Origin: a virus
Taxonomy: Duplodnaviria > Heunggongvirae > Uroviricota > Caudoviricetes
Virus record (IMG/VR): IMGVR_UViG_2925939204_000001
Reading direction: 5' to 3' (one strand)
DNA: 64,000 bases
Shown here: piece after piece, positions 5,319-47,580 of the stretch
Numbering within the stretch: position 1 is the first letter of the stretch
Layout: each line of letters begins with the position of its first letter
Notes under the pieces: model-generated
What the model saw: only the letters and a program-made list of their open reading frames with translations
What the model was told of the DNA's origin: nothing
The model's database searches: none
Position numbers and translations under genes: made by a program

Positions 5319-6826
5319 TGGCTGGCGGGCGCAAGATTAAATGCGTCACCAGCGATCCACGCTGGCGCGATATGGTAATCAAATACCGCTACAACTTTAC
5401 CCAGGCTGTTGTCGATATTTTTGGGATGTTCCCCTCCCACCAGCAGCAGCAGATCATTCAGTCAGTGCAGGAAACGGGGAGTAGGACTACCGTCACGTCC
5501 GGACACGGAACGGGGAAGTCGTCCCTTACCGCGATGTTGCTGTTGATTTTTATGATCCTGTTCCCCGATGCCCGTGTCATCATTGTTGCTAACAAGATAG
5601 GCCAGGTAAAAACAGGCGTATTCAAATACGTTAAACAGTATTGGGCGAATGCAGTTAAGCGTCATGGGTGGTTGCAGACCTATTTTGTCCTCTCTGACAC
5701 CATGTTTTATGAGCGCTCCCGTAAGGGGATTTGGGAAGTTCTCTGCAAAGGTTATCGACTCGGCAACGAAGAAGCGCTGGCGGGGGAACACGCGGCACAT
5801 TTGCTTCTAATTCTGGATGAAGCATCTGGTATATCTGATAAGGCGATCGGCGTAATGACCGGTGCTCTTACTGAAGAAGATAACCGGATGTTGATGCTAT
5901 CCCAGCCAACAAGGCCAAGTGGTTATTTCTACGATTCGCACCATTCTCGAGCAAAAACCCCAGACAACCCGAAAGGGATCTGGACAGCAATTGTTCTTAA
6001 CTCGGAAGAATCACCGTTCGTCACACCACAATTCATCAAGCAGAAGCTTCTGGAATATGGCGGGCGCGATTCTATTGAGTACATGGTCAAGGTGCTTGGT
6101 CAGTTCCCACGAGAAATTAACGGCTATTTGCTTGGTCGTGATGAATGCGATCGCGCTGCTCGCCGCAAGGTGTTGTTGGAGAAAAACTGGGGATGGGTGG
6201 CAACGGCTGACGTTGGTAATGGGCGAGATAAGTCGGTCCTCAACATCTGCAAGGTATCTGGTCACAGGGATAAGCGGCGCGTTGTTAACTTTAAGGTAAT
6301 GGAGATGCCTGGCACTATGGACCCATTGGCCTTTGCTGACTTCATATATAACGAATGTACGCCGGAAAAATACCCGAATATAACAATCGCGGTTGATGCT
6401 GATGGTTTTGGTTCTGATACGTGTGCGCAGTTGGTGCGTCGTGGTGCGAACCCGGTACGTATTCGGTGGGGAAAACCCATGTTTGCGAACAAAGACAGGG
6501 AGCGATTTGTTAATCAGCGTGCCTACGCAAATATTATGGCGCGTGATGCCATAAAGTCAGGGCGTATGCGGATAGACAGTGACCCTAAAACGGCAGAGCA
6601 AGCGTCAAAAATCCCCTTTTTACTGAATGAAGAGGGGAAAATGGCGATGATGCGCAAAGAGCACATGCGGCAAAAGCTAAACATCAAATCGCCTGACCGA
6701 TGGGATACCTACTGCTTCACTATGCTGGTGGACTATGTGCCTGCTAATGAAGATATTGGTGCCGAAATGGCAACTTTCCGAGATCAGGTTCTGGCGGATA
6801 TCGAAATGCCGGCTCTGGATATATAA
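5318..6826 (+). CDS. pacB: terminase large subunit PacB-like (ATPase/nuclease)
   Basis: Walker A SGHGTGKS and Walker B LLLILDEAS motifs; 502 aa; overlaps pacA stop. Confidence 0.85.
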   Translation: MAGGRKIKCVTSDPRWRDMVIKYRYNFTQAVVDIFGMFPSHQQQQIIQSVQETGSRTTVTSGHGTGKSSLTAMLLLIFMILFPDARVIIVANKIGQVKTGVFKYVKQYWANAVKRHGWLQTYFVLSDTMFYERSRKGIWEVLCKGYRLGNEEALAGEHAAHLLLILDEASGISDKAIGVMTGALTEEDNRMLMLSQPTRPSGYFYDSHHSRAKTPDNPKGIWTAIVLNSEESPFVTPQFIKQKLLEYGGRDSIEYMVKVLGQFPREINGYLLGRDECDRAARRKVLLEKNWGWVATADVGNGRDKSVLNICKVSGHRDKRRVVNFKVMEMPGTMDPLAFADFIYNECTPEKYPNITIAVDADGFGSDTCAQLVRRGANPVRIRWGKPMFANKDRERFVNQRAYANIMARDAIKSGRMRIDSDPKTAEQASKIPFLLNEEGKMAMMRKEHMRQKLNIKSPDRWDTYCFTMLVDYVPANEDIGAEMATFRDQVLADIEMPALDI

Positions 6827-41353: not shown

Positions 41354-42259
41354 ATGAGATCAGTCGCTTTCAAAAATATCTTCATCTATCGTCTTTCACG
41401 CGAAGTTAGCTGGGATACTGCAGAAGTAAATGCAGCCCTTAGCAAGTTTGTGTTTACCCCATGCGGTTCTCAGGATATGGCTAAAGCTGGTTGGACCTCC
41501 GTTCTTGGTGACAACCTCACCCATGAATACCAGGGTTTTCTTCTGATACAGCATAAACGAGAGGAAAAAATCCTACCTTCTCAAGTGCTCAAAGAAGAGT
41601 TACAGAAAAAAATCCTGACACTTGAAGAAGAGCAAGACAGAAAGCTGAAGAAGACCGAAAAAGATTCGCTGAAGGATGAAGTGCTTCACTCTCTTCTTCC
41701 TCGTGCTTTCACGAGAAAATCACTCGCCAAAATCCTGATCGACCGCAGCAACCATCTGGTATTCGTTGAGGCAAGCAGCGCCAAAAAGGCAGAGGACCAG
41801 CTGGCTTTATTGCGAAAATCGCTCGGCAGCCTGCCTGTCATTCCATTCACACCACGCGAACCGCTGGAAATTACAATGACCGAGTGGTTTAAAAACGGCT
41901 TCCCTGCCGGATTTACAGCAGGTGAAGACGCCACATTAAAGGGTCTGCTCGATAATGGTGGTGCCGTTCGCTGCAACAAAGTTGATCTACAGTCCGACGA
42001 GATTATGTCTCACATTGAGGCGGGGAAAGTAGCTACGACCGTTGCAATTAACTGGATGGACCGCGCGTCGTTCAGAGTCAACGATGATATGAGTATCAAA
42101 GCCCTGACATTCTGTGATGATCTCTATGACCAGAACGACGATATCGACCGGGAGGATGTAGCACAACGATTTGATGCTGATTTCGTGCTCTTTACGGGCG
42201 AATTATCTGCACTGTTTAACGCGCTGGTGGAGGCCATTGGCGGTGAAGCAGAACGTTAA
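41354..42259 (+). CDS. hrdC: RdgC homologue (recombination-associated protein)
   Basis: Collinear similarity to E. coli RdgC, e.g. [60 protein letters not shown]. Confidence 0.85.
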
Positions 42260-44399
42260 CCTTCGATATGGTTCAGTTTGCAGTGGAATTGAAGCCGCGA
42301 GCATTGCCTGGGAACCGTTGGGTATGCGTCCGGCGTGGTTTGCTGAAATTGAGCCTTTTCCATCTGCCGTTCTTGCGCACCGCTGGCCTCATATCGCCAA
42401 CCTTGGCGATATGACAAAACTTGCCAAAAAAGTCCTGGCTGGGGAAATCGAATCCCCTGATGTGCTCGTCGGGGGAACACCTTGTCAGGCATTCAGTATC
42501 GCGGGATTACGTGGTGGGCTTGATGATGAGCGCGGCGCGCTAACTTTGAAGTATGTGGAGCTTGCAAATGCAATTGACGACAAACGGTCTGAGTCCTTCC
42601 TCAAACCGACAGTTATCGTCTGGGAAAATGTCCCAGGAGTCCTGTCATCGGCAGATAACGCCTTCGGATGTTTCCTTGCCGGATTGGCTGGAGAAGATGC
42701 ACCATTTGAACCAGGTGATCGACCTGAATCAGGAAAAAGTAACGCGTTCTGGCGGTGGGATGGCAAAACCGGTTGCCATGCTCCAAAGTGGCCGCAGTGT
42801 GGTTGTATTTATGGACCGCAGCGAAAGGTGGCCTGGAGAATACTTGATGCCCAATACTTCGGAGTGGCACAACGACGCCGACGCGTGTTTGTTGTCGCAA
42901 GTGCTCGAACAGACCTCGATCCCGCAACGGTACTTTTTGAGTTCGAAGGCGTGCGCCGGGATATTGCGCCGAGCAGAGGCGAGGGGAAGGAAGTTGCCGG
43001 AAATGTTGGAAATGGCATTAAAAGCGGGAGCCATTGGGATAACCCTGTAAATCCTCACCCGACACTTGCCCGATCGCACAATACCGGCGGGACGGGTGCA
43101 AGCAACCAGGAGATTTTTTCACAGCGCGGAAGTGGGCTTGTCGGTGCTTACCGGATGGTAGCATTTGGTGAGTATGCGGATGATGAGGCGGCTTCCACGG
43201 TCAAGGCCAGAGATTTTAAGGATGCAACCGACCTGGCTGTTTTTGACAGTGCGAACGTCGGAGTGGCAGTACGTCGCTTAACGCCTGTCGAGTGCGAACG
43301 CCTGCAGGGCTTTCCTGACGGGCACACGTTGATCCCTACGGAAAAGCGTAAAAAAGTTTCTTCAGATGAACTGGCATACCTTCGCAATCACTATCCAGAT
43401 TTAAGCGAAGAAGAGGCCGCGATGCTTGCAGCTGACGGACCGCGTTACAAAGCGATCGGCAACAGCATGGCAGTTCCTGTTATGCAATGGATAGGGTGTC
43501 GCATTCTTGCGACCGTAGCGGATAAACAGCAAAAAACAATAAATACCATTACCTACACAAGAAAACTCCGGACTCCGGATGAATATGAACGCCCAATATT
43601 CAAATGGGTAGGCGGTAAATTCTCAGAGTTGCCTACAGTGCTTGAGCATCTACCACACGGCAAGCGGTTAATAGAACCATTCGTTGGTGGCGGTTCCGTA
43701 TTTACGAATGCAGGATTTCGCCACAACCTGCTTAATGATATTAACGGTGACCTGATTAACTTCTATCAGACATTGCAGCGAGAGGGACATTCGCTCGTCA
43801 CGCTGGCATATAGTTTTTTCAAAAATTACAACAACGCTGACGCTTACCTCGAAGTGCGCGAGGCATTTAACAGAGGAAAGTATGACCAGCTACATCATGC
43901 TGCCGCCTTTTTGTACCTTAATCGGCACTGTTTTAATGGCGTAACGCGGTACAACCAAAATGGCGAGTTCAACGTGGGGTATGGCAAATACAAAGCGCCC
44001 TACTTCCCACATGCAGAGATGGAGGCATTTTTGGCTGATGACGTACTCAAAAACACGTCCTTTGTATCAGGTGACTTTGCTGGCGTCATCGAGGCGGCTG
44101 GTGAAGGCGATGTGATTTTTTGCGATCCGCCGTATGAACCGCTGCCGGATACAGAAGGGTTTACCAGTTATTCAGGAAATAGCTTCCGTTTCGACGAACA
44201 GAAACGGCTGGTATCTCTATTGGTGGAAGCCCACCAGCGCGGCGCTAAGGTAGTGATAACAAATAGTGGTGCGCCAAACATCCGTGAACTATATGAACGA
44301 AACGGGTTTAAAGTACATCATATGGCAGCCAGACGGTCGGTGTCCTGCAAGGCGTCAACACGTGTAGTTGCTAACGATATAATTGCAATAATGAAGTAA
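42171..44399 (+). CDS. dmt: bifunctional DNA methyltransferase Dmt (N-terminal C5-cytosine MTase, C-terminal Dam-like N6-adenine MTase)
   Basis: C5-MTase motifs GTPCQAFS and ENVPG; Dam-type DPPY motif in C-terminal half; real start probably near GTG 42243 just before the hrdC stop. Confidence 0.85.
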
Positions 44400-44404
44400 A
44401 AAAC

Positions 44405-44435
44405 GCCGCAGTAGCGGCGTTTACTTTTTTATGTG
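44405..44435. terminator. bidirectional terminator between dmt and glnS
   Basis: AACGCCGC-AGTA-GCGGCGTT hairpin flanked by A and T runs. Confidence 0.55.
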
Positions 44436-44447
44436 GCGAAATACCTA

Positions 44448-46109
44448 TTAACCTAACTTCGCCCAGGTATCACGCAGCCCAACGGTGCGGTTAAATACCG
44501 GTTTTTCCGCCGTAGAATGGCGGCTGTCGAGGCAGAAATAACCTTCACGCTCAAACTGGAATGCTTTACCCGCTACCGCTTCTTTCAGCGACGGTTCAGC
44601 AAAACCCTGTTTGATCACCAGCGATTCCGGGTTAATCACCGACAGGAAATCATCCGCAGCACCTGGGTTCGGCACGCTGAACAGACGATCGTACAGGCGG
44701 ATTTCAACCGGCAGCGCATGTGCCGCGCTCACCCAGTGAATAACGCCTTTCACTTTACGACCATCTGCCGGATCTTTGCTTAAGGTGTCGGCGTCATAAG
44801 TACAGAAGATGGTGGTGATATTGCCTTCGGCATCTTTCTCCACGCGTTCAGCCTTAATGACGTAAGCATTACGCAGACGCACTTCTTTACCCAGCACCAG
44901 ACGTTTGTACTGCTTGTTAGCTTCTTCGCGGAAATCGGCGCGGTCGATCCAAATCTCACCGCTAAACGGCACCTGACGGCTACCCATTTCCGGTTTGTTT
45001 GGATGGTTCGGCATGGTGACCATTTCGCCTTCGCCCTGGTAGTTTTCGATAACCAGTTTCACCGGATCGATAACCGCCATTGCGCGCGGCGCATTTTCGT
45101 TGAGATCTTCACGGATGCAGGATTCCAGCGACGCCATCTCAATGGTGTTGTCCTGCTTGGTCACGCCGATGCGTTTGCAGAACTCACGAATAGAAGCCGC
45201 AGTGTAACCACGACGACGCAGACCGGAAATGGTCGGCATACGCGGGTCATCCCAGCCTTCAACGTGCTTGTCGGTCACCAGCAGGTTCAGCTTACGCTTG
45301 GACATCACAGTGTATTCCAGATTCAGGCGCGAAAATTCGTACTGGCGCGGGTGAACAGGAATGGTGATGTTGTCCAGTACCCAGTCATACAGACGACGGT
45401 TGTCCTGGAACTCAAGCGTACACAGAGAGTGCGTAATACCTTCCAGCGCATCGCTGATGCAGTGGGTGAAGTCGTACATCGGGTAGATGCACCACTTGTT
45501 GCCAGTCTGGTGATGTTCAGCAAACTTAATGCGGTACAGCACCGGGTCGCGCATCACGATAAACGGCGAAGCCATGTCGATTTTCGCACGCAGGCAGGCT
45601 TTACCTTCTTCAAAACCACCGGCACGCATTTTTTCGAACAGCGCCAGGTTCTCTTCAACGCTGCGGTCGCGGTACGGGCTGTTTTTACCCGGCTGCGTCA
45701 GGGTGCCGCGGTATTCGCGGATCTGTTCCGGCGTCAGTTCGTCAACATACGCCAGGCCTTTGTTGATCAGTTCAACAGCATAGGCATGGAGTTTGTCAAA
45801 ATAATCGGAGGAGTAACGGATGTTGCCAGACCAGTGAAAACCTAACCATTCAACGTCGTTTTTAATCGACTCGACGTACTCGATATCTTCTTTTACCGGG
45901 TTAGTGTCGTCGAAACGCAGGTTGCACTGGCCTTTATAGTCCTGGGCGATCCCGAAGTTCAGGCAGATAGATTTCGCATGACCAATATGCAGATAGCCAT
46001 TCGGTTCCGGCGGGAAACGGGTATGTACTGTGGTGTGCTTACCACTGGCCAGATCTTCATCGATGATCTGACGAATAAAGTTAGTCGGGCGGGCTTCTGC
46101 CTCACTCAT
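44448..46109 (-). CDS. glnS: glutaminyl-tRNA synthetase
   Basis: 553 aa with class I HIGH ([11 protein letters not shown]) and KMSKS (VMSKR) motifs; full-length match to E. coli GlnRS as I recall it. Confidence 0.95.
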
Positions 46110-46377
46110 TGTGGATTCCTCAAAGCGTAAACAACGTATAACAGCGTATGATCTTATAAGCCGAATAGGCTGACAACCACTAGTTGATTAGAAATTACTT
46201 TCTATCGTTATTTCAATAATGAGCTTTTTCATGAAGCCCACTTTTGCGCATAAGTAAATTAATGACAAATGGTACACAATTGGAACCAAAAAGGATGTAA
46301 AGGTGCACCAAATTAGTGGTGTATTGGTGCACCTTTGGTTCAAGACTTTTTAAGTTCTAAAACCAACCTGAAAGACT

Positions 46378-46665
46378 TTATTTTGCTTCCTCAGACTCCG
46401 CTAACATGAGGATAGCATGGCGGATCATATTCAATTTGCTGCGATTATGCTTTTTGCTCAACGCATCAAGTACCTGGTACTCGTATTCATTGAAACCAAC
46501 ACGAATAGATTTAAAATCACGTGGAGCGTCCTTATCGAGCACTTTGTTGTCTTCTGGTTGCTCACCCGGCACCAAATCAGCCTTACTTGCAAAATCCTCA
46601 ATTCGGCGTTCAAGATCGGGGTCTTTTACTTCGGGGGCTTTTACCGATTTACGAGGCTTAATCAC
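46378..46665 (-). CDS. ParG-like centromere-binding protein (ribbon-helix-helix)
   Basis: 95 aa; basic flexible N-terminus and C-terminal RHH-like segment; immediately downstream of, and overlapping, the ParF-like ATPase gene. Confidence 0.5.
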   Translation of the reverse strand: MIKPRKSVKAPEVKDPDLERRIEDFASKADLVPGEQPEDNKVLDKDAPRDFKSIRVGFNEYEYQVLDALSKKHNRSKLNMIRHAILMLAESEEAK

Positions 46666-47329
46666 TTAATAACTCCTTAACCAACATCTGGATTTCACCT
46701 TTAGCTTTCCCGTTGTCCATCTCAACAACGCCCTTCCCTTCAGCCATGCAATCGCGGTAAACCTTACGATCACGAATGATGGTTTTCAGCAACTTCAGTT
46801 GCGGATATTCAGCCAGGTACTCTTTGGCCTCATTGGTTTCATTCACAACCGGATTGGATGGGGCCATTGTTAAGACTGCGAACGCCTTAATGCTAGGATT
46901 AGGCATCAGGTCCAAAGCCTCTTCAAACACTTCAACAAAGTGTGCCAGCGTGTCTAAATCTGGTTGAGATGGTCTGAATGGGACCAACACAATATCTGCA
47001 GCGGTTATGCCTGTACGCATCTCTTTGCTATCGCGCCCGGCTGTATCAACAACAACAAATTCATAACGCTTATCCAGATCGAGAAGTGTTTCTCGAATAT
47101 TACCAAACTTCTGGACACAATGAATTACAGGAGAAACCTCTGCCGTGTTACGGTCAGCTGCCCAGCGGGCAGCTGTTCCTTGCTTGTCTGCATCTAGTAA
47201 CACTACATCCTTATTTGCGCGGGCAAGCTCCGCACAGATGTTTACGCTTGTGGTTGATTTTCCACAGCCACCTTTTTGGCTGACTACCAATATAATCATA
47301 TCCGTTCCTCGGTGTGATTTTGGTATCAA
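46658..47329 (-). CDS. ParA/ParF-family partition ATPase (small type Ib)
   Basis: Deviant Walker A VVSQKGGCGKST; probable real start at internal Met (MIILVV...). Confidence 0.8.
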   Translation of the reverse strand: MIPKSHRGTDMIILVVSQKGGCGKSTTSVNICAELARANKDVVLLDADKQGTAARWAADRNTAEVSPVIHCVQKFGNIRETLLDLDKRYEFVVVDTAGRDSKEMRTGITAADIVLVPFRPSQPDLDTLAHFVEVFEEALDLMPNPSIKAFAVLTMAPSNPVVNETNEAKEYLAEYPQLKLLKTIIRDRKVYRDCMAEGKGVVEMDNGKAKGEIQMLVKELLSD

Positions 47330-47580
47330 AACGGTTCCAGATAAGAGCCTTTTTGATGCGGGACAGGCTCTATAATGGAGTCATGAATGTTTGGCAAAGT
47401 ATAACATCAATCAGACCAAATACACCTTATATTGCATCCTATTTAACACGAAATCAGCCCTAAATTGGAACCAGATACAAAATTGCACCATAACAGCACC
47501 TAAATGGTGCCAGTTCAACACTAATTAGACACCATTAAGGCACAAAAAGGGCTGCAATTTGCAGCCTTAAACCAGCACAT
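47330..47580. repeat. iteron-like repeat cluster upstream of the ParF-like gene (putative centromere/operator)
   Basis: Repeated AAATTGGAACCA / AAATTGCACCAT / AAATGGTGCCAG units; related units also at 46241-46320 and 50255-50300. Confidence 0.4.

Follow-up and report, generated by a model that had tools for sequence, protein, structure and literature searches.

A complete host-type glnS transcription unit on D6-like phage-plasmids as a probable redundant source of glutaminyl-tRNA synthetase

The glnS gene and its product

The DNA analysed here is a window of 64,000 nucleotides (nt) from a virus of the Caudoviricetes (IMG/VR record IMGVR_UViG_2925939204_000001), and our subject is its gene for a host-type glutaminyl-tRNA synthetase (GlnRS), glnS, of the kind carried by phage D6 and related phage-plasmids. 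The interval 44400-46377 runs exactly from the stop codon of dmt to that of orf61 and holds a single long open reading frame (ORF), glnS, at 44448-46109 on the minus strand. Its 553 codons begin with ATG and were identified as a canonical glutamine--tRNA ligase from the ORF list, the TIGR00440 model, a Protein Data Bank match, identity to the K-12 gene and catalytic motifs. On the left, dmt (42171-44399, plus strand) is a 742-amino-acid ORF for a fused cytosine/adenine DNA methyltransferase, corresponding to D6 orf63/orf64 and to P1 dmt, and converges with glnS. On the right, upstream of glnS and co-directional with it on the minus strand, lie a 95-amino-acid ORF annotated in D6 as orf61 (46378-46665) and the gene for a ParA-family partition ATPase (D6 orf60; 46658-47329; NF041546 ParA_partition, E = 1e-47). 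The ORF list and the D6 gene order thus bear out the preliminary description, which had placed glnS between dmt and the partition genes with phage or plasmid genes on both sides and no chromosome junction.

The product scored 1067 bits against TIGR00440, the glnS equivalog model (cut-off 425.8), with residues 28-551 spanning all of model positions 1-524. It aligned end to end, residues 1-553 on residues 1-553, with the solved E. coli GlnRS 1o0b, and likewise with 1gsg; in the alignment to 1o0b the complete domain set of the enzyme was present, the C-terminal anticodon-binding barrels included. The motifs of class I aminoacyl-tRNA synthetases (aaRS) were unbroken, with HIGH at residue 41 and VMSKR, the E. 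coli GlnRS form of KMSKS, at residue 268. At the nucleotide level the gene differed from K-12 glnS (b0680) at 64 of 1662 positions (96.15% identity), the changes amounting to 55 synonymous codons, the substitutions V97I, Q106K, I112V, D510E and V552L, and loss of the terminal E554. No inactivating change was seen in the window copy, and the earlier view of a full-length gene whose product is essentially E. coli GlnRS stands, with five substitutions and one lost residue. From its near-identity to the characterised enzyme, the plasmid-borne product is expected to be an ordinary GlnRS that would charge tRNA-Gln.

Anatomy of the inserted unit

Direct reading located a Shine-Dalgarno sequence, GAGGAA (46117-46122, minus strand), 7 nt before the ATG and identical to that of the chromosomal glnS leader, and the leader as a whole (...TTTGAGGAATCCAC.ATG) was conserved in alignments with chromosomal glnS. 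A promoter scan found the sigma-70 promoter TTGTCA-17 nt-GATCAT at 46148-46176 (minus strand), with a Dam site in the -10 hexamer (GATC, 46150-46153). Both hexamers, GATC included, were kept in 22 of 23 aligned Enterobacteriaceae and plasmid copies, the exception being a Citrobacter cronae plasmid (GAAC). On the chromosome, Dam methylation represses this promoter, and expression of glnS rises when dam is mutated (Plumbridge & Soll 1987, cited in PMC11741368, where RNA-seq gives +1.08 log2); a regulatory tie between the Dam-site promoter and the adjoining phage gene for a Dam-type methylase can be imagined. Further upstream, a segment with a fuzzy boundary (46177-46270, minus strand) was weakly similar to chromosomal nagE-glnS intergenic DNA in alignments with K-12, E. 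ruysiae and others; it occurred in glnS-bearing plasmids and was missing from relatives with an empty site. The suspicion that the gene carries its own upstream region was well founded, as similarity to the chromosomal glnS locus extended at least 75-95 nt before the ATG.

At the other end, the terminator scan revealed a bidirectional intrinsic terminator, AAACGCCGC-tact-GCGGCGTTT, at 44401-44422 (both strands), 26 nt after the glnS stop codon. This hairpin is the native glnS terminator, which now ends the convergent dmt as well. The corresponding motif, AACGCCGC-loop-GCGGCGTTT, lay 20-35 nt past the glnS stop in most Enterobacteriaceae and 26 nt past it in D6-like plasmids, and in K-12 and E. 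ruysiae it was found about 200 nt past the stop, behind repetitive extragenic palindromic (REP) elements. The window gene thus shares with E. coli chromosomal glnS the -35 and -10 hexamers with the Dam site, the leader and the terminator stem, and differs from it in lacking the chromosomal context, the REP elements between stop and terminator and the KVGE end of the protein. Since promoter, ribosome-binding site, coding sequence and native terminator were all retained, the insert is a whole transcription unit, and the terminator 26 nt after the stop with no REP elements indicates that it was captured in a REP-less arrangement.

Distribution among D6-like phage-plasmids

A 2.2-kb query covering the glnS region (44300-46500) was used to survey plasmids, and records were counted at 80% coverage or more; the E. 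coli set comprised 5,426 complete genomes and the phage set 50,697 records. Plasmid NZ_CP117014.1 of E. coli MLI121 matched the region at 100% identity, and 97 plasmid records from E. coli, Salmonella and Shigella covered at least 80% of the query, nearly all of them about 90 kb in size and non-mobilisable. The sequenced virion genome of phage D6 carried the same gene with the same junctions, at 98.5% identity over 2.2 kb; its record annotates orf62 as "glutaminyl-tRNA synthetase, similar to E. coli GlnS" between orf63 (dmt) and orf61/orf60 (parA-like). No close homologue other than that of D6 was found among the 50,697 phage records. The D6-type par region was detected in 93 of the 5,426 E. 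coli genomes (about 1.7%), in all 93 on plasmids, and plasmid copies of glnS numbered about 75 among these genomes. Even a plasmid with only about 82% identity to the window in the par region carried the gene.

These data also dispose of the idea, raised in the preliminary description, that the gene might be an assembly chimera; a chromosome-plasmid junction was considered alongside. High identity to a chromosomal gene would be expected of such an artefact, but phage D6 and the 97 plasmid records (some 100 complete plasmids assembled independently) had the same junctions, no E. coli chromosome exceeded 94.4% identity to the 5' part, and the flanking par region was never chromosomal in 5,426 genomes. 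We therefore give this explanation a negligible probability. Integration of the element into the chromosome through glnS homology was rejected as well, the 93 par matches being all plasmid and none chromosomal.

The gene is in the published record. A 2019 population study of D6-like prophages described glnS as present "in all D6-like genomes", called it a moron and, drawing a parallel with the cysS gene on plasmid pBT1, suggested that it contributes to the fitness of the host or helps to maintain the plasmid (PMC6799933). Thus glnS in the D6-like lineage is already annotated and known. The window belongs with this orf62-type cargo, its glnS lying between dmt and orf61/parA-like in the same order as in MF356679. 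It shares with D6 orf62 (MF356679 / NC_050154) and with glnS of the D6-like plasmid prophage pYU39_89 the locus, a 553-amino-acid product ending in KLG, the promoter and the terminator, and differs from them in its 3' half, which matches K-12-type chromosomal alleles in D6 and pYU39_89 and another E. coli allele in the window.

Presence in every D6-like genome was excluded by 17 E. coli plasmids with an uninterrupted dmt-orf61 junction and no glnS, so that our survey found the gene to be lineage-wide but not universal. The two empty-site plasmids inspected (NZ_CP159120.1 and NZ_CP091837.1) had the full D6-like gene order minus glnS. Their dmt terminator differed (AAAAGCCCC...GGGGCTTTT) and was followed directly by the repeat-rich region before orf61, and the 3' end of dmt in glnS-bearing plasmids was a different allele from that in empty-site plasmids. 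glnS is an insertion between dmt and orf61.

The comparison took in eight D6-like alleles whose hosts were E. coli or Salmonella; seven of them were intact. V552L and the loss of E554 were the only changes common to all seven, which end in KLG, chromosomal E. coli GlnRS ending in KVGE. V97I and Q106K were missing from two alleles, and the allele of an E. fergusonii plasmid had neither V552L nor the loss of E554. That plasmid, pEF-4 (NZ_CP137859.1; locus L006, 7001-8665), is D6-like and carries a divergent glnS at the same locus, 95.1% identical to the window gene and encoding 554 amino acids ending in KVEG; conversion by the chromosomal glnS of its E. fergusonii host may account for this allele. 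The Salmonella-hosted allele examined was intact, and most other Salmonella records annotate glnS, in a host whose resident gene is only about 85% identical. In pSa1423-160k (NZ_MK356558.1; locus L005, 7001-8648) many small indels ran through glnS and the neighbouring genes, a pattern that suggests an assembly from uncorrected long reads and not a biological change.

A single capture followed by exchange with chromosomal genes

Across positions 150-450 of the gene, identity to the window was 92.4-94.4% for every one of the 5,427 chromosomal copies in E. coli and at least 95% for each plasmid copy; with no chromosomal copy above 94.4%, the plasmid 5' signature was found in none of the 5,427. 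Six sites between positions 87 and 348 (87, 105, 129, 246, 261 and 348) were fixed and plasmid-specific, and the window carried this lineage signature together with the KLG end and the terminator 26 nt after the stop. Over positions 1100-1620, the best chromosomal copies reached 99.0% identity to the window.

Trees were built from plasmid and chromosomal glnS, E. coli and E. ruysiae being the Escherichia species represented by chromosomes. In the neighbour-joining tree of positions 1-450, the eight D6-like alleles whose hosts were E. coli or Salmonella formed a single clade that lay outside both of these species, and the allele of the E. fergusonii plasmid branched off separately next to it. 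In the tree of positions 1001-1650, plasmid and chromosomal E. coli alleles were mixed: D6 and pYU39_89 fell with K-12, and the window with strain 2020CK-00188. Window and D6 glnS were 98.3% identical, and their 29 nt differences fell almost all in the 3' half. In the triplet of window, D6 and K-12, a breakpoint was located between positions 820 and 1071 (maximum chi-square 38.9, matched by none of 2000 permutations). In a donor scan of species-representative genomes, E. ruysiae was the only member of the genus among the matches listed.

The 5' clade, the 3' interleaving and the breakpoint together indicate a single old capture followed by recombination with chromosomal glnS, and as far as alignments can tell the donor was at the level of the genus Escherichia, with repeated homologous exchange with resident chromosomal genes ever since. 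A recent capture from the host, one of the origins first proposed, does not hold: the gene is common to D6-like plasmids with par regions at about 82% identity, and its 5' part falls outside all 5,427 chromosomal copies. Capture from E. coli in particular was ruled out by the 5' segment identities (at most 94.4%) and the tree of positions 1-450. In the proposed course of events, an ancestor shared by most D6-like phage-plasmids would have received a complete glnS unit in one insertion event, with dmt on one side and the partition operon on the other, and the donor, at least for the 5' part, would have been an Escherichia-lineage chromosome outside present-day E. coli. Because the plasmid gene is 96-99% identical to the resident chromosomal one, recombination would be ongoing; the 3' two-thirds would have been overwritten by different E. 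coli chromosomal alleles, with the 5' 400 nt and the last codons keeping the plasmid-lineage signature.

Flanking sequences, tRNA genes and a possible lytic role

dmt was a single 742-amino-acid ORF in the window, in P1 and in NZ_CP091837.1. In phage D6 (locus L002, 6522-8100) it is annotated as orf64 (cytosine methylase) and orf63 (adenine methylase), with about 640 nt less in total, and in NZ_CP159120.1 it was a pseudogene without its N-terminus. Both sides of the parA-like/orf61 operon (46278-46336 and 47463-47510) carried palindromic GGTGCACC boxes and AATTGGAACCA repeats. The GGTGCACC boxes form a perfect 13-nt inverted repeat (46299-46311 / 46324-46336), and similar boxes occurred in empty-site relatives; these elements are candidate centromere or operator sites, or a candidate terminator of the par operon.

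ARAGORN called five tRNAs in the window, at 549-2035: Arg-tct, Tyr-gta, Thr-tgt, Ser-tga and Met-cat. As had been noted from the sequence, tRNA-Gln was not among them, nor did ARAGORN find one elsewhere in the window, and the five lie 42 kb from glnS. For P1, the arrangement given in the preliminary description proved correct, dmt being followed in NC_005856 by the ban promoter region and then by trnA and trnT. The tRNA set of the window differs from those given for pYU39_89 (Asn, Thr, Ser and Met; PMC6799933) and P1 (Asn, Thr and Ile); the complement seems to differ between relatives, or the calling does.

These tRNAs bear on whether glnS serves the lytic phase, in which amplification after induction would boost Gln-tRNA charging for phage protein synthesis. 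Five tRNA genes on the same element and the distant GlnRS genes of very large uncultured phages are consistent with such a role, and a Dam-sensitive promoter beside a phage Dam-type methylase gene could couple expression to the state of replication. However, the window lacks the cognate tRNA-Gln and hence does not encode the pair of tRNA and cognate aaRS that makes up a phage auxiliary translation module. A glutamine-rich phage proteome was likewise rejected, Gln making up only 3.6% of residues in the 56 long ORFs of the window, with no enrichment (the E. coli proteome has about 4.4%). Moreover, the promoter is a host housekeeping one and not of the P1-type late or C1-controlled kind, and D6 alone has a close homologue among the phage records. 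A lytic function is thus very unlikely in our view.

The aaRS genes of very large phages resemble the window in that a GlnRS-family gene lies in a phage genome, and differ in that the proteins are only 50-57% identical, are not host-identical, and come from uncultured genomes of 630-640 kb or unannotated contigs. The distant records are LR745206.1 and LR756502.1 (630-640 kb), together with CAKLQF020000030.1 and CAKLQH020000029.1, labelled Acinetobacter phage MD-2021a; the latter two are 240-kb contigs that also carry gltX and may be bacterial DNA.

The role of the plasmid-borne GlnRS

When a mobile element carries an additional aaRS gene, this is often a resistance determinant, the plasmid gene ileS2/mupA for mupirocin resistance being an example. 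The D6-like GlnRS could by that precedent be a counter-measure, an enzyme escaping a toxin, a defence system or an inhibitor aimed at host GlnRS or tRNA-Gln. But it bears only five substitutions and a missing last residue, and of these only V552L and the loss of E554 are common to the seven intact alleles. A resistant enzyme or one of altered specificity, of the mupA/ileS2 type, was accordingly rejected, as the changes were few and mostly not conserved among alleles, and we consider this explanation remote. A broader suggestion, that the gene is an active device which makes the lysogen depend on the phage-plasmid or sustains Gln-tRNA charging when GlnRS or tRNA-Gln is under attack, with expression coupled to the methylase, is conceivable and in our judgement doubtful.

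glnS was also found on plasmids unrelated to D6. Citrobacter cronae p.S175-1.4 and Enterobacter ludwigii CM-TZ4 unnamed2 resemble the window in carrying a complete glnS with its promoter region, and differ from it in that each gene groups with the chromosomal gene of its own genus and lies on an unrelated backbone, indicating independent captures. The Citrobacter plasmid (NZ_CP060445.1; locus L004, 3331-7155) is conjugative (MOBP/MPF_I); about 770 nt separate its cysS from its glnS, a HigB toxin module adjoins them, and the arrangement looks akin to the pBT1 scheme, here with a pair of aaRS genes. In the 133-kb Enterobacter plasmid (NZ_CP116349.1; locus L003, 3715-15656), the Enterobacter-type glnS lies amid two site-specific integrases, dinQ and a very large SNF2-related gene. 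That unrelated plasmids have independently captured glnS from their own host genera suggests a recurring advantage.

Plasmid pBT1 of Salmonella Typhimurium ST313 D23580 offers an experimentally backed precedent for plasmid retention through an essential gene. Like the window, it carries a full-length housekeeping class I aaRS gene, cysS, besides an intact chromosomal copy, and this copy was needed for growth, the intact chromosomal cysS being down-regulated and dispensable (PMC6333337). Acting in the same way, the plasmid glnS would be the main source of GlnRS, the chromosomal gene would be down-regulated, and plasmid-free cells would grow poorly. The authors of PMC6799933 put this forward for D6-like glnS; the Citrobacter conjugative plasmid has cysS and glnS side by side, and glnS lies directly downstream of the partition operon, amid other stability functions. 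Nor would a retained chromosomal glnS be incompatible with a takeover of this type, because in pBT1 hosts the chromosomal gene is intact but silent (PMC6333337). The two cases nevertheless differ, pBT1 cysS having 79% nt identity to the chromosomal gene and being a demonstrated required copy (PMC6333337), while the D6-like glnS is 96-99% identical to the chromosome, recombines with it and resides on a phage-plasmid. Essentially all E. coli genomes that carry the plasmid gene still have glnS on the chromosome, D6-like plasmids already possess two partition systems and toxin-antitoxin modules (D6 annotation; PMC6799933), and the 17 related plasmids persist without the gene. These observations all speak against such a retention device. 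We also know of no feedback regulation of glnS able to silence the chromosomal copy, which counts against it too. We regard a retention device of the pBT1 kind as unlikely.

At the other extreme, glnS could be a neutral hitchhiker that brings no benefit and owes its intactness to frequent gene conversion from the selected chromosomal copy. The clear mosaicism of the 3' two-thirds with chromosomal alleles fits this account, as do the relatives that lack the gene with no obvious consequence (about 18%) and the amino-acid substitutions that are not common to all plasmid alleles. Yet the unconverted 5' 400 nt, the promoter and the C-terminal codons are still intact in seven of the eight D6-like alleles, and the Salmonella-hosted copy is intact though conversion should be rare against a chromosomal gene of about 85% identity. 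Furthermore, 1.8 kb has been kept in a packaging-limited phage genome across backbones diverged to 82%, and three captures by different plasmids were independent. Neutral carriage seems improbable to us on these grounds.

The explanation that we consider probable is that a whole host-type glnS unit, captured once, serves as a redundant second source of GlnRS in the lysogen and recombines with the chromosome. Its own housekeeping promoter would drive the plasmid gene constitutively in the lysogen, carrier cells would gain a second source of an essential enzyme, and this ordinary GlnRS would charge host tRNA-Gln. Expression and activity of the plasmid gene are expected from its intact signals and coding sequence, and the benefit would lie in redundancy or extra dosage of an essential function, a suggestion already made in the preliminary description (gene dosage or backup) and compatible with all the observations. 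The gene may in addition tie host and plasmid together. In the lysogen, plasmid glnS would thus be cargo, a moron, in line with the published view (PMC6799933).

Several observations weigh against this explanation. About 18% of the D6-like plasmids in E. coli (the 17 with an empty site) do without glnS, so the gene is dispensable for the element. Chromosomal glnS was found at 5,427-5,428 places in the 5,426 E. coli genomes, essentially every carrier keeping one, so that the plasmid copy is not replacing a lost gene. In one of the eight D6-like alleles, that of pNCYU-25-82-5 (CP042632.1), a 1-nt insertion near codon 57 shifts the reading frame; this may be a genuine mutation or an error of sequencing. 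Retention of an intact gene over long divergence does speak for the explanation, dN/dS being about 0.02 in all comparisons, with plasmid-plasmid dS of up to 0.22. As a sign that the plasmid copy itself is under selection, so low a ratio is nevertheless weak: the 5' divergence may be older than the capture, the variation was perhaps inherited from chromosomes, and conversion from the chromosomal gene, which is under selection, keeps repairing the 3' part. Among papers published after PMC6799933, our literature search turned up no functional data on D6-like glnS.

Essential housekeeping genes are rare on plasmids or phages, and the D6-like phage-plasmids of E. coli, Salmonella and Shigella are a natural system for asking why such a gene is kept. 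To the published description this analysis adds that the unit was captured whole, that some relatives have an empty site, that the 5' signature falls outside the diversity of E. coli, that the 3' part is recombinant, and that other plasmids captured glnS independently. The single-nucleotide polymorphisms of the 5' part tell plasmid from chromosomal glnS alleles, and the mosaic alleles are direct evidence of a phage-plasmid swapping sequence with a core chromosomal gene. The phage-plasmid would act as a shuttle in which glnS alleles of different Escherichia lineages recombine, a process already visible here.

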